From Eledone cirrhosa (taxonomy: Eukaryota): a stretch of 64,000 nucleotides of DNA. Position 1 is the first letter of the stretch; each line of letters starts with the position of its first letter. This document shows positions 2,841-61,260 of the stretch, one piece after another. The stretch lies in the NCBI GenBank assembly GCA_964016885.1, contig OZ024742.1, positions 302,746,001 through 302,810,000 on the forward strand, in the 5' to 3' direction. The notes beneath the pieces were generated by a model that was not told the origin of the DNA, made no database searches, and saw only the letters and a list, made by a program, of their open reading frames with translations. A program made the position numbers and the translations under genes.

Positions 2841-2885
2841 AGCTGACAGAGCTCTGTTTCGCACTTTTTGGTGCTTATCAAAACT
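2841..2885 (-). ncRNA. Type I hammerhead ribozyme, U3:A8 core variant
   Basis: Minus strand reads AGTT-TTGATAA-GCAC caaaaa GTGC-GAAA-CAGAGCTCTG-TC-AGCT. Stems I, II and III pair, with a GUC site. Confidence 0.75.
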
Positions 2886-3117
2886 AAGTACTCCGCCTGT
2901 TTGCTGAAAATCATGAGTGTTTGATTCTTATAGAATTCTAGTAATAATCAGGAACTGATTATACAGAGCGGTTGCCGGTCAAGCAGAAATTGAAAATTAG
3001 GATTGGTGCTCTGAAATAGCGATATATATATATGAATGTATTTAAGAATCTATAAGAATTTATAAGAATCTATAAGAATCAAACATTCATGATTTTCAGC
3101 AAACAGGCGGAGTACTT

Positions 3118-3162
3118 AGCTTTGATAAGCACCAAAAGGTGCGAAACAGAGCTCTGTCAACT
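3118..3162 (+). ncRNA. Type I hammerhead ribozyme, U3:A8 core variant (inverted copy)
   Basis: AGCT-TTGATAA-GCACC aaaa GGTGC-GAAA-CAGAGCTCTG-TC-AACT. Stem I has one mismatch. Confidence 0.7.
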
Positions 3163-3653
3163 TTATCCCCCATGTTTGCTGAAAATTAAAGTAAGTGAGA
3201 CTGTCACTACTCTAAAACAATAGCGTAAGGTCTTTAATTAAGCATAGAGTGTATTGCAAAATACACGATATATACATTAATAGTAATATTTTAGGATTTA
3301 GGCTCATACATAAGTATGCGCTGACCGGGGTGGATGTATTCTTTAACGAAAATATAATGTATGAAAATTATACATACAGATATACATATATACGCACATA
3401 TGCAAACGCACATATACGGACATATGTACATATAAATACACATATATACGCATTTACACATACGCATACATATGCATACGCATATATATACATATATATA
3501 TATATGGTAGCCGAACTTATATATATATATATATACACAAACACAGACATATAATTACACACACACAACATATATATACATTCATACATACATATATACA
3601 TACACACACACACACACACACACATATATATATATATATATATATATATATAT

Positions 3654-4459
3654 ATGAAGAGAGAAGAAACATTTAGATATAATTAGTAATAAAATGTATC
3701 ATACCTAAAGTGCTCCTAGATTCCTCGACTACGTAGTTTCGTGGCATAAACAAAAACAATACATCATAAAGATATAGAGTCCCTGCGAGGTCTGCCGACT
3801 TATCAAGAGGATACCTCATTTTACTAGTCTCAAGAACGCGTCCACACGACGTGAGAAAGAATCCCAAAAGGCGGAGGGGGAGATAGTCACGCGATATAAC
3901 GGTCGAGAAACAGAGCTAAGCCTCTTATAACCCCGAAAAAAATACCACAGAGGCGGAGGGGGTATTTATATCGAAGCCGTAGAAGAGGTGGTGAAGGAGG
4001 CGAGAAGTATGAGTAATGGCAGCTTTCCAGCAGCCACCACACTTCAAAGATTACTCAACCAGAGGGAGTTATTAACAATATATTTAGAAACACACAGATA
4101 CATGCGGACACACACATATACATGAATGCATCCACACCCAACCGTGAGTTAAGGGTGCCAACCTCACCGATGTTGCTCAATGAATGACTGGGACAGACCA
4201 ATCCGGTTGAACCAGACTGAACCAGTATCAGAGTTAAAAATACATTATGAAGAGAGAAGAAACATTTAGATATAATTAGTAATAAAATGTATCATACCTA
4301 AAGTGCTCCTAGATTCCTCGACTACGTAGTTTCGTGGCATAAACAAAAACAATACATCTATATCTTTATGATGTATTGTTTTTGTTTATGCCACGAAACT
4401 ACGTAGTCGAGGAATCTAGGAGCACTTTAGGTATGATACATTTTATTACTAATTATATC
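3654..4459 (-). mobile_element. Non-coding PLE pLTR or retrozyme-like element: 593-bp unit, partial tandem copy and 90-bp inverted copy
   Basis: 3654-3765 repeats at 4247-4358. 4269-4358 and 4370-4459 are reverse complements. It abuts (TA)n and contains a hammerhead. Confidence 0.7.
3722..3811 (-). ncRNA. Type I hammerhead ribozyme, U3:A8 variant with long loop 2
   Basis: Minus strand reads TCCTC-TTGATAA-GTcGGCA...TGCCAC-GAAA-CTACGTAG-TC-GAGGA. Confidence 0.75.
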
Positions 4460-4729
4460 CTTTTTTCTTTCTTTTTTCTTTCCTCCTATCTATTTATATC
4501 TTTCTTTTCTACATACATTTCTCTCTCTCTCCGGTATTTCTCCAGGTTTTCTTTTTCTCTCTCCCCCTTTTTTCTCTCTCCTTCTCTCTCTCCGTTTTTT
4601 CTTTCTCTCCGTCTTTTTCTAACTAATAAAATAATTATAAACATCTCACTATCCAGACAGCTTCCAAAAATAATGGTTGCATCTAATAGGGTACGTCAAA
4701 AATATTTATAAAACTGTTTATATATTGTA

Positions 4730-57250: not shown

Positions 57251-59779
57251 GACTAACCCAATTCCTAGAACATAAACATTCATAAACTGATTTGCAATCG
57301 TCTGTTTCGACTCTGCCTGTTCCAGTTGTTCGATCATCAAAAGAACCTACTCGGAAAATATACATGCACGTTGCTGAGAGTGCCATAGAGACATGTATCC
57401 TTAACGAAATTCTCAGAGATTCAGTGTGTGACAAGACTGGTCCTTTGAATTACAGCCACAGTCCATCAGATAAGTTTCTCAAAAGTTTCCCTCTACTCAA
57501 TTTCACTCACGAGGTTTAGGTTGCTTCGAGGCTATAGTAATCGGCCCAAGTTGTCACGTAGTGAGATTGAACCCGAAAACTAATGATAAACATTTGAAAC
57601 TTATTAAAGTTTCAAGGATGATAAACACAACCACAAGGATATTGTCCGAACACGGAATAGCCGAACTCCCACTGTCATCACCTCCATCTCTCTCATCCTC
57701 CCTATCTCTCTGTATAGTGAGCAAAAGGGTTTCCACATGCTGGCCTCCTCACAGTCCCGGCGGACAGAATGATTGTGAAGCGAACTCTTTGGCGACTTAA
57801 CTATTCTGTGCCCAACATAACCAGGTCACAAGGCTGAAGGGAAATTCATGTTTTGATATCCTCATAGCAGCAGAAATCTAGTCATGTAATCTAAGCCTGT
57901 TGTTTATTCTCAAGTCACCTTCGATTGAGGAGAACTAGGATCAAAGACGTCACAGCCCGTGACCATCACGTATCATTTTCTAGGGATAATGTTCTCAGGC
58001 ATATCCTCTTTCATCATGCATACATCCAAACACACACACACACACACACACACACACACACACACACACACACACACACACACACACACACACACACACA
58101 CACACACACACACACACACACACACACACACACACACACACTCATATAAATATATATATGTATGTGTGTGCGCGCGAGTAAGAGTGTGCATACGCGTGTA
58201 TGTGTGTTTGCGGTTGTGTTTATGCTTACACACCACGCATGTAACTATGTATATACACGTATTTAGCAGAATTAATTTTCTTCTAGCTGTAAATTGCAGA
58301 CACGTGCTCAGACCTAAATTTGTTTAAACATACATGGTAAACATAATTTGATACACTATATATATATATATATATATTTACATATATATATATACATACA
58401 CGCACATACACACACACACACACACACACACACACATATATATATATATACACATATATATGAATATATATATATATATATATATATATATATATATATG
58501 CACACACAAAAACACACAGACACATATATGTATACGTCTATACAGACAAACATACAGTGAATAACAATCTGCAAGATACATATACACACAGATGACACAA
58601 CGACACAAAACGACCACAATTACACACACATGCAACATTAAATAGATAAGACGATAATTCGCAAATAAATGAATGAACCAACGCAAGATTTCCAAGAATG
58701 TCTCATTAAATGTAATGTGATCTAGTATCGATCTTAATTGCTAAATCGATTCTCTAGCATTCCATTCGATTCTCCAGAGTGCTATAAGTTGTTGAAAAGA
58801 TTCAATTTGAATAATGGCGCATGACCCGATCTAGTTTGATTGGGGCTCCTTTTAACGTTTACAGTTCAGACAAATTTGCTAATCTTTGTTCGTTGGCGAA
58901 GCAGTTCAGTGTATGTCAAGATGTTTTCAGCCGTTATGTTTACGATCAAGGTTTGATGAGATGACCATTCTCGTAGAGCAATATCTTAATTTCTTTCTAA
59001 CACAGTGCCTTTCGACCTATGCCGCAAATAACAGCCGTAGCGAGGAGTTATTCAAACAAGAGAATTGTAACACCTACCTAAATTATATACCATTACAAAT
59101 AATTGATTCTGCGCGCTTTTGTTTCCCGTTACTAAGTTATCAGAAAGTTTCCAACGGATATTAAGGCCGTCAGTATATTTCACTATAGCTACTTTCAAAG
59201 TTAGAGTAGGGGGGAAAGCTAAGCCTCTTATACAGTCTTTATTGTGGATGTGAATCATACCCTACCACAAATTACATGCACATAATAGTTGATTCGAAAT
59301 GTTTAAATGAAATATTGCTACTGCCAATTTCTGTTCTGCTATAAATGAAGTGACTAAGATTTGTAATATAGACTGAAGCTGAAGTAGATCAGAGCAATAA
59401 TAAAAGTTTCAGTTGTAACTGGTTATTAGAAATCAGATTAAATAAATTTCCAATGAAATATAGTTATAGAAAGGTATGTGTGACAATAATTCATAAACAC
59501 AATATTACTGGGACATTTTAATACTCTACAGAGGTATAAATGGTGACAACTTGTATAATGAACGTTTACGTTGCAGCTTATTAAATATATTAATTATTCA
59601 TTTAGTGAAATGAAAAAGGTATAAAATTACAAACAGGTGCGGTAATCTCTCCCCCCTCTCTCTTTCTCTTTCTTCCCTCCCTCTCCCCCTCTCACACACA
59701 TACGCACACACACACACACACACACACACACACACACACACACACACACACACACACATATATTTATATATATACATAC

Positions 59780-59895
59780 AACGAAGGAAGTGTGGTAAGG
59801 AACCAGGTGGACCATAACGTTCAGATCTAAGGTTCAGATCTAGCTGTCGAAACGGCCGGAATACAGCCGTCGGGGACCTGACTCTTTTCCTATAT
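59780..59895. mobile_element. Third, rearranged copy of the 53-kb pLTR family
   Basis: tgtggtaaggaaccaggtggaccata is joined to an inverted tagctgtcGAAACGGC...GCCGTCGGGG. Confidence 0.65.
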
Positions 59896-60210
59896 ACGTG
59901 TGTGTGAGTGTCTATGTGTGTGTGTGTGTGTGTGTGTGTGTATGTGTGTGTGTATGTCTATGTGTGTGTATGGGGGAGGGGGAGGGGCAAATGTCTTCTA
60001 CTGGAGTATCGTGTTGACCAATACCTTGTGTGTGTGTATATATATACATATATATATACATATATATATATATATATATATATATATATACGGGGTAACA
60101 CATTATTGTTATAGGTAGTCCACTTAAGTCTAGTCCAGTTATGGTACTCCCAGTAGTGGATGATATAAACGCTTGGCTAAGTTTGACTCAACAAGGCGTT
60201 TCCATAGTGA

Positions 60211-60318
60211 TGCTGCGATGAATTGATTGGTTACAACTATCTATTGGTGATCGAATGACGTGAAAACAAGCGAGTAGCGATCTCTAGACTTACCAGTTCA
60301 GAGAAACAATTGTCAGCA
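60211..60318 (+). ncRNA. Degenerate hammerhead-like motif
   Basis: TGCT-GCGATGA...GAAA-CAATTG-TC-AGCA. Core positions 3 and 4 are non-canonical. Confidence 0.4.
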
Positions 60319-61223
60319 ATGAGATTAAAAACCTTTTTTGTATAGCAAACCGTGTCACTTCTTTCCTGATTTATATATATATATATATATATATATATAT
60401 ATATATATATATATATATATATATATATATATATATATATACATACATACACACGGCGGGCTTTTCCAGTTTCCATCTACCAAATTCCACGACGAGTCAT
60501 TTGTGAAGCCAAAGTTCCGAGCGGCCTGATTGAACTGAGATCTCTCGGGTGGCGAAGTGGGCCCTTTATCACTTACGTCAATCAAATGTTTACGATCCAA
60601 TAGCTTTAATTTATAAATGATTATGACTCGTTATTGATTTACAATTACAAACCTTTCGATGGGTTTTAGCACACTTTCGCTCTTCGTATTCTCACTCACA
60701 AGACGAAAAACAAATATATATATATTTAATTATGTCTCATATAAAATAATACAACTGGCTATCCACAAAATACGTATAGTTAGCAGCCCAAACGTATAAT
60801 TGGGATTATACTAAGGTATATCCTAATGTTTGTTGAGTGAGACGGAAGCCGGTCGGAGTATTGCTTAAAGCTTTCTCTGTTAATGTATTAAATATATATA
60901 TATATATATATATATATATATATGAATGTGAGTGTCTATATATATATATATATATATATATATATGAATGTGAGTGTCTATATGCGTATATATATATATA
61001 TATATATATATATATATATATATATATATATATATATGATTCCTGTTTATAGGTAAATACACACACACACTCACCCACCCACACACACACATATATATAT
61101 ATCAGCACAATCGCCGATGGACGTGCGTTTTCTCCCTTCTTTTTCCTCCTTTTTCCCCCTCATTTCCCCGCTCTTTCCTCTTATCAATCGTTACTTTCCA
61201 TGTCTCTTTTATTTCTAATTCTA

Positions 61224-61260
61224 TCCTCTGATGAAAGACAGGTGTCCGCAACGTCAAGTC
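61224..61260 (+). ncRNA. Degenerate minimal hammerhead-like motif
   Basis: CTGATGA-aaGAC aggt GTCc-GCAA-CG-TC. It has GCAA instead of GAAA and a weak stem I. Confidence 0.4.

Follow-up and report, generated by a model that had tools for sequence, protein, structure and literature searches.

A 64,000-nucleotide stretch of the Eledone cirrhosa genome (GenBank assembly GCA_964016885.1, contig OZ024742.1, positions 302,746,001 to 302,810,000 of the forward strand), hereafter the window and numbered from its first letter, carries type I hammerhead ribozyme motifs on both strands. They sit in modules of two known kinds, namely, the pseudo-long terminal repeat (pLTR) ends of Penelope-like elements (PLEs; sites 4730 and 6378, likely also 9912) and non-coding tandem retrozymes (sites 2841 with 3118, 10844, and 3722). 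A preliminary description of the window had listed eleven intact and seven decayed motifs, ascribed them to a large population of TA-targeting self-cleaving retroelements in short modules, and suggested that they could cut any long pre-mRNA transcribed across the region.

Three families represent the retrozymes. Family A occupies 2680–3045 on the minus strand (outer limits approximate) with about 1.1 copies of a non-coding, tandemly repeated 319-bp unit that carries the long, tailed end and a hammerhead at 2841–2885 with a U3-A8 core and a palindromic helix III; its inverted partner arm at 3058–3275 (plus strand) bears the short end and a second hammerhead, 3118–3162, with one helix I mismatch. 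Family B (3656–4459, minus strand) is a 593-bp unit with an inverted arm at 4357–4459 and a hammerhead at 3722–3811 that combines a U3-A8 core with a long helix II loop. Family H (10686–11065, plus strand) has a unit of about 450 bp, found elsewhere as trimers, and a hammerhead at 10844–10923. Across the genome, families A, H, and B consist of circularly permuted head-to-tail units of 319, 449–451, and 593 nt with one type I hammerhead each, longest methionine-initiated frames of 44, 75, and 48 amino acids (aa), and predicted circular folds with z scores of -5.4, -3.8, and -5.9 against 40 shuffles each. Non-coding tandem units with a monomer predicted to pair with itself are the marks of retrozymes that lack long terminal repeats (non-LTR retrozymes). 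Candidate copies number 1,413 for family A (best copies 96–98% identical; hammerhead accepted in 27 of 30 loci), 1,491 for family H (95–99% identical), and 2,492 for family B (98–99% identical). Family L (53793–54117, plus strand; hammerhead 53859–53943; 1,996 candidates) is likely a tandem retrozyme as well, an overlap of its ends having been seen by eye. A further retrozyme family forms a 311-bp tandem array with a minimal hammerhead at L150:8596–9717 and shares a 155-nt segment with family A (77%); additional family A-related units lie at loci L157, L144, and L092, and a short family A-like end that bears no hammerhead lies in the window at 52520–52625 (minus strand).

The modules of the other kind are ends of autonomous elements. 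Family C (4551–4923, plus strand) comprises the 3′ untranslated region (UTR) and pLTR of a probable Hydra-type PLE, with a complete hammerhead at 4726–4794. Family E (5480–6533, plus strand) is the 3′ UTR, containing (CA)n, and pLTR of a probable Neptune-type element; its hammerhead variant at 6379–6414 has a U3-A8 core, C in place of A at position 13 (A13C), and a 3-bp helix I. A second family E copy is a head-to-head pair (6680–7084) with a hammerhead at 6808–6844 on the minus strand, a half motif at 6886 on the plus strand, its short end on the left, and its tailed end on the right. At 8650–9797 (minus strand) lies a 5′-truncated, frameshifted open reading frame (ORF) and 3′ UTR of a probable Hydra-type PLE, in which a reverse transcriptase (RT) thumb, a CxCX5C linker, and a GIY-YIG-like region are discernible; two pieces scanned gave no Pfam match. 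Inverted at its 5′ break is a family F end (9798–10045, plus strand) with a hammerhead at 9912–9962.

Among 18 genomic regions picked for paired family E or family C pattern matches (nine each), RT or endonuclease frames were found in six of the family E and seven of the family C regions. The near-full family E element at locus L167 has two direct hammerheads 4.8 kb apart with RT and GIY-YIG frames between these pLTRs, the organization of an endonuclease-bearing PLE (RT, PF00078, 29.1 bits, just below the cut-off of 29.6; GIY-YIG, PF01541, 32.8 bits, cut-off 22.6). It has a CX4CX2C linker and a DKG motif, its GIY-YIG is C-terminal, and its ORF starts about 25 nt past the tail. Both family E copies in the window match it: 6680–7084 is 98–100% identical to its ends, and 5480–6533 is 73–94% identical to its 3′ UTR and pLTR. 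With DKG and a CX2-5CxxC linker ahead of a C-terminal GIY-YIG in the frames of L167 and L169–L172, family E probably belongs to the Neptune or Nematis clade, two clades that linker and DKG do not separate. The seven family C regions represent one element type that together displays RW[KR], DKT, and a CxCX5C linker (read in L161–L166). These are the marks of the Hydra clade, in which DKT stands instead of DKG (PMC8557442), and together with the (TA)n target they suggest that the elements of family C, and likely those of family F, are of this clade. Of these motifs, the window fragment at 8650–9797 has the CxCX5C linker only; it matches family C proteins at 30–46%. This ORF had been considered as Naiad and then as Nematis, assignments that were abandoned as its domain order and the published linker description point to Hydra (PMC8557442). 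Naiad elements have an N-terminal GIY-YIG and no canonical hammerhead; the endonuclease of family C and E elements is C-terminal, and hammerheads are present. Family F (2,880 first-look genomic candidates) was found at seven of 19 other loci of the 8650–9797-type ORF, inverted upstream of it in six and abutting the ORF break in two, and is likely the pLTR of this element by association; in all 20 loci, a hammerhead directly behind the 3′ UTR was absent. Overall, the pLTR hammerhead, 5′ truncation, inverted partner, and one-sided tail that typify Penelope elements are all present. The attribution to PLEs and retrozymes stands, tied to autonomous elements through families C and E and to tandem non-coding units through families A, B, and H. 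The notion of short, free-standing modules needs correction: they are often 5′-truncated ends of autonomous elements of 3–5 kb.

The motifs greatly exceed chance. Sites were first read by eye, and a type I hammerhead descriptor was then written; an initial version with helix II of at most 40 nt and perfect helices yielded 2 to 5 window motifs and was replaced by a main descriptor that tolerates a single mismatch, A13C, and the U3-A8 swap and lets the helix II loop be long, with a looser setting in which three of four helix I pairs suffice. At the main setting the window contains 11 motifs whose core boxes and NUH site follow the type I order (five on the plus and six on the minus strand), against means of 1.08 and 1.05 in dinucleotide shuffles of the whole window and in blocks (40 of each), where the maximum was 4; the looser setting gives 15 against 2.15 and 2.13. 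Among the sites described earlier as intact, 2841, 3722, 9912, 10334, 10844, 32498, 34590, and 53859 pass the main setting, 3118 and 5208 pass the looser one only, and 52838 passes neither. Four of those described as decayed (29810, 34398, 53570, and 61224) are indeed decayed or half copies of families that are complete elsewhere; 4730 is complete, 6378 is the normal form of its A13C family, and the supposed half motif at 60211 is a repeat with no recognizable hammerhead core. Two more window matches, 47397–47452 (plus strand) and 28958–29056 (minus strand), stand without relatives among the loci compared and may be due to chance.

Since the descriptor was relaxed after the window sites had been read, the unbiased test is an unselected genome sample of 40 10-kb stretches, weighted to large chromosomes. 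Its two halves gave 29 and 28 matches against shuffle means of 3.6 and 3.0. Ten of these 57 matches are false and come from a single stretch, L087, where a minisatellite imitates the hammerhead core and so yields false positives in descriptor scans. With L087 dropped, the remaining 39 stretches (389.6 kb) contain 47 matches, five of them from one tandem array, where about 6.4 are expected. The implied density of about 104 per Mb, against about 155 per Mb in the window, makes the window roughly 1.5 times the average; it is no special cluster. Within 130 nt downstream of the cut site, 28 of the 47 sample matches have a (TA)4 run, compared with 18% of random positions, as expected from the claimed TA targeting. 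Extrapolated from the sample over the 3.0-Gb assembly, the genome is estimated to carry roughly 300,000 hammerhead motifs, with a fair range of 200,000–400,000. Exact patterns set a floor of at least about 54,000 copies: 44,209 matches for family C, including a few overlapping double counts, and 10,295 for family E, with none for either reversed-pattern control. The motifs are also diverse, the 204 matches in all fetched loci falling into 40 clusters, 21 of which have at least two members, as the preliminary description had anticipated. Rfam models are not known to capture minimal PLE hammerhead variants, and a scan of the window with them detected no hammerhead, either at gathering score or among the 150 E-value matches listed out of 200.

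Several lines of evidence support the fold itself. Of 36 repeated families chosen by their core and helix III alone, 10 have a complete helix I; the control in which families exchange strands gives 2.1%. Positions 3 and 8 are complementary in 23 of the families, which include all 10, and not in the other 13, none of which has a complete helix I. Family C interiors picked without regard to helix II fold better than their own shuffles in 37 of 43 cases. An alignment of 30 of these 43 rows, from which near-duplicates and one unrelated row were omitted and whose structure was drawn from the same sequences, has 95.6% of its cells paired, with two-sided changes in eight of the nine helix II pairs, the stem covariation that had been named as a check. 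These changes involve 71 cells, against 25.5 in shuffles, none of 500 of which reaches 71. The minimum-energy monomer fold contains all three helices in only one of 12 motifs folded alone, namely, 10844. Helix III is short and palindromic in most of the others, fitting the dimer model proposed for such ribozymes (PMC4209133).

The insertions share a distinctive scar. Each family examined has two preferred 3′ ends, one short and one about 30–80 nt longer, mostly running into (TA)n, and ragged 5′ ends that are often joined to an inverted copy. In 61 of 64 such head-to-head pairs, one outer end is short and the other long and tailed (family A, 7/8; H, 8/8; M, 26/28; G, 4/4; C, 3/3; F, 10/10; E, 3/3); the count omits four window-repeating loci, three near-duplicates, and 22 internal tandem units, and the 50% null for it is an assumption. 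Families whose ends were not selected by the searches give 36 of 38. The ends of tandem units fall in short TA-like tracts of the element, which may aid priming. That pLTR ends and retrozymes have the same short-long scar points to one Penelope enzyme system copying both, and the adherence of retrozyme families A and H to the rule provides genomic evidence that Penelope proteins move them. Precedents exist in the literature: PLEs often have a tail at one end only (PMC8557442), two RT start sites bound the tail and both target strands are extended (PMC11167929), and minimal hammerheads in pLTRs and inverted copies are documented (PMC4209133; PMC8557442; PMC11167929).

The explanation we favor, with a probability of roughly 0.85, is that the motifs are type I hammerheads at Penelope 3′ ends and in retrozymes, both probably inserted into (TA)n by a Penelope RT-endonuclease that would nick both strands and use a different RNA start site for each, the two lying immediately downstream of the hammerhead. 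The element protein would nick both strands of the (TA)n target, and each target 3′ end would prime complementary DNA (cDNA) synthesis at one of the two fixed RNA sites. Both cDNAs would usually stop early, and their unfinished ends would be joined head to head. The hammerhead would release the retrozyme RNA, mostly as dimers or with protein help, and circularization is possible. Early stops would leave only the last 100–500 nt, so hammerheads would pile up: located just upstream of the start sites, the ribozyme would belong to the first stretch copied and would most often be what remains. The majority of genomic copies are likely inert.

A number of observations weigh against this proposal or narrow its reach. 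Families D, G, I, J, K, and M are so far assigned to neither class. The L167 ORF is frameshifted, and no intact driver ORF was seen among the regions inspected; Pfam detects nothing in Hydra-type frames, so the Hydra call rests on motifs, and in none of the 19 other loci of the 8650–9797-type ORF does the ORF run continuously into family F. Two of the five covariation measures in family C do not exceed shuffles, with nine pairs showing two-sided change against 7.5 (reached by 95 of 500) and 24 further pair types against 25.5 (461 of 500); within the 30-row alignment, two-sided change is absent from helix I, and relatedness inflates the remaining measures. With the Anolis Penelope protein in vitro, the start sites did not differ between strands (PMC11167929). 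Cleavage, RNA ends, and circles are predictions from sequence here.

Family E raises a question about the role of the ribozyme. Its flanks enclose C at position 13 in 10,295 matches and A in 199, and the listed A matches are mostly a sister family with a stronger helix I and standard core. A13 is normally required in hammerheads. It is listed in the consensus core by PMC3088659. The family E motif, which combines A13C with U3-A8 and a 3-bp helix I in young copies, would be either dead and irrelevant to spread, an option that in vitro hammerhead mutants allow (PMC11167929), or rescued by a dimer or protein. More generally, the hammerheads could be passengers, many of which, such as those of the A13C family, no longer cleave, the fold merely placing the RT or hitch-hiking beside the start sites. 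Such a reading is doubtful, though it has real points in its favor: the abundance and youth of family E despite its altered core and short helix I, the unchanged insertion level of hammerhead mutants in vitro (PMC11167929), and the failure of 11 of 12 motifs to adopt the full fold alone. Set against these, about 20 repeated families preserve the core and the helices through compensating changes, in keeping with selection acting on the catalytic core in the majority of them, and the sister of family E retains a standard core. Passenger hammerheads are compatible with the proposed mode of copy spread. A second alternative concerns families A, B, and H, which might be satellites that arose from a pLTR and multiplied through duplication of DNA instead of via RNA. 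Head-to-tail arrays are what this would produce, and satellite-like growth from PLE ends has been discussed (bioRxiv 2026.07.22.740005); the arrays seen comprise only 2 to 5 units, and copies lie dispersed on many different chromosomes, placed in (TA)n and showing ragged 5′ ends, inversions, and the Penelope two-end scar, rendering such an origin very unlikely.

A further reading extends the suggestion of the preliminary description: active hammerheads would cut long pre-mRNAs across such regions and thereby shape host expression. About one motif per 10 kb occurs genome-wide, 10844 is predicted to fold as a stable monomer, and retrozymes are under-represented in Xenopus introns (bioRxiv 2026.07.22.740005), all of which would fit. 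More than 40% of the copies in that study are nevertheless intronic, most motifs here would need a dimer or protein, and the window's motifs are balanced between strands. In published work, Penelope hammerheads show weak cleavage or depend on a dimer or an element protein (PMC4209133; PMC11167929). Among 34 window frames scanned, no host exon was found (two weak matches fell below cut-off), and there may be no transcript across the window; intronic cuts are, moreover, often tolerated. We therefore consider an appreciable host effect improbable and the suggested general cutting of pre-mRNA unsupported, while a few monomer-competent copies such as 10844 could, by their predicted fold, cut a transcript. 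Lastly, the motifs might be chance matches in AT-rich, hairpin-rich repeats, given that shuffles yield about one match per window, that one minisatellite gave 10 false matches, and that Rfam finds none. For the set, this is already refuted by counts seven to ten times those of shuffles, by the recurrence of families, by covariation, and by the fixed position beside element ends, and chance holds at most for 47397, 28958, and 60211.

The class to which these modules belong is known, comprising Penelope pLTR hammerheads and non-LTR retrozymes; what is notable is their scale, the near-strict two-end rule common to both, and the A13C family. Like the minimal hammerheads that the pLTRs of metazoan PLEs contain (Cervera and de la Pena 2014, PMC4209133), those described here have type I topology, a short palindromic helix III, an extra base before helix II, and the U3-A8 variant, and occur mostly as single motifs from truncated elements, with opposite-strand pairs 100–700 bp apart and many families per genome. 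They differ in number, with about 300,000 estimated here against about 2,000–9,000 per genome there by a different descriptor; an A13C family of more than 10,000 copies was not encountered in the available text of that study. Counts published with other descriptors are, for Xenopus tropicalis, about 9,000 minimal hammerheads (PMC4209133) and, for mussel and axolotl, about 5,000 and 126,247, respectively (PMC7229834). The family C elements resemble Hydra-clade PLEs (Craig et al. 2021, PMC8557442) in having RT followed by a C-terminal GIY-YIG, a canonical hammerhead, and insertion into (TA)n; that clade is known from few aquatic-invertebrate families, whereas family C, placed there by motifs, alone has 44,209 exact core matches. 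The family E element at L167 is like Neptune (or Nematis) PLEs in its DKG, CX4CX2C, C-terminal GIY-YIG, direct pLTRs, and tail just before the ORF start, and unlike them in a hammerhead core altered at positions 3, 8, and 13.

Families A, B, and H likewise match animal non-LTR retrozymes (Cervera and de la Pena 2020, PMC7229834; Li et al. 2026, bioRxiv 2026.07.22.740005) in their non-coding head-to-tail units, low G+C content, single type I hammerhead, and predicted self-paired monomers, although two of the units, with 450 and 593 nt, reach or exceed the 150–450 bp range of those reports. Mobilization by PLEs was proposed there from co-occurrence and homology, and here from the two-end scar in (TA)n. 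Two internal RT start sites bounding the tail, cutting and extension of both strands, and an AT-rich target are common to the proposed mechanism and to Anolis Poseidon in vitro (Frangieh et al. 2024, PMC11167929). The one-per-arm use of the sites and the frequent location of ends in TA-like tracts depart from that system, which showed neither a strand difference nor target homology. In literature with subscription papers largely uncovered, neither a comparable load nor a tally of short-long pairs was found reported, and the available text of PMC13282606 makes no mention of ribozymes.

The genome thus offers a very large natural sample of a known class. Tentatively, it holds one of the heaviest known hammerhead loads, at about one per 10 kb and in dozens of families; its scars may record a mechanism in which one complex makes one cDNA per strand from different start sites and also mobilizes retrozymes, the A13C family may represent either a new, protein-rescued core or dispensable cleavage in vivo, and chimeras may seed new families. 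Because young retrozymes (98–99% identical) and young Penelope elements share one scar, the question of who mobilizes animal retrozymes becomes directly testable with named RNA/protein pairs. The one-short, one-long rule makes a specific prediction about how Penelope integration is completed, its unsolved second half, and the A13C family tests whether pLTR hammerheads have any need to cleave. The natural variants, which number tens of thousands and are missed by Rfam annotation, furthermore constitute a ready library for ribozyme sequence-function screens.

Family M and the remaining modules complete the inventory. Family M is present in the window as a head-to-head pair at 52945–53142, consisting of 3′ halves only and broken within helix II, a second such pair at 53510–53703 (site 53570), and a third remnant at 59790–59893. 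Genome-wide, its copies mostly break within helix II, and complete copies have a U3-A8 core; the idea that the family has a standard core on a long perfect helix II gave no match and was dropped. Forty-two genome matches considered for family M were largely chimeras or inversion by-products. In the chimeric hammerheads (e.g., at L105, L110, and L115), one family contributes the 5′ core half together with a portion of helix II, and family M contributes the 3′ half, likely through template switching; new ribozyme families could originate in this way. The family D module (4963–5363, minus strand) has an inverted arm and a hammerhead-like motif at 5208–5249 whose helices I and III are weak, in relatives too. 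Family G is a head-to-head pair (10230–10532) with a minimal hammerhead at 10334–10372 on the minus strand and a palindromic helix III. Families I (32452–32600; hammerhead 32498–32580) and J (34534–34720; hammerhead 34588–34646, site 34590) lie on the minus strand. Family K (52570–52935, plus strand) has a motif near 52838–52884 with a U3-A8 core and bulged helix I that was read by eye and missed by the descriptor. Decayed copies comprise a hammerhead at 29755–29880 (minus strand; site 29810), whose relatives retain the 5′ core, another at 61190–61300 (plus strand; site 61224) that groups with it, and an inverted family F end at 34380–34475 (site 34398).

The remainder of the window is rich in other repeats. 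Copies of long interspersed nuclear elements (LINEs) lie at 13.5–27.9 kb; the one at 22868–27914 (plus strand) has ORF1 and an open 1152-aa ORF2 with endonuclease, RT, and zinc domain, looks intact, and is probably young, and decayed copies at 13466–16231 (minus strand) and 16899–22023 (plus strand) adjoin it. A LINE-fragment end at 36638–36897 forms a 101-nt inverted repeat beside (TA)n, head to head like the hammerhead modules. Repeats resembling short interspersed nuclear elements (SINEs) and derived from tRNA occur at 7380–7690, 12689–13055, 45480–45620, 47650–47830, and 35268–35333, the last being the sole Rfam match at gathering score in the window. Near-identical 80-bp pieces at 32290–32372 and 60810–60892, with (TA)n at the end and no hammerhead in view, are possibly very short ends of another element, and a direct duplication of about 220 bp (7835–8060 and 8395–8610) lies between TA runs, with no hammerhead found in it. 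A short, decayed Penelope-type RT-like fragment that gave no Pfam match follows a (TCT)n run at 30302–30660 (plus strand). Simple repeats, including (TA)n and (CA)n, are abundant throughout. The 3′ UTRs of PLEs carry (CA)n and (TA/TG)n runs of their own (5480–6150 and L167; 8620–8700), and part of the genomic microsatellite load therefore sits inside these elements.

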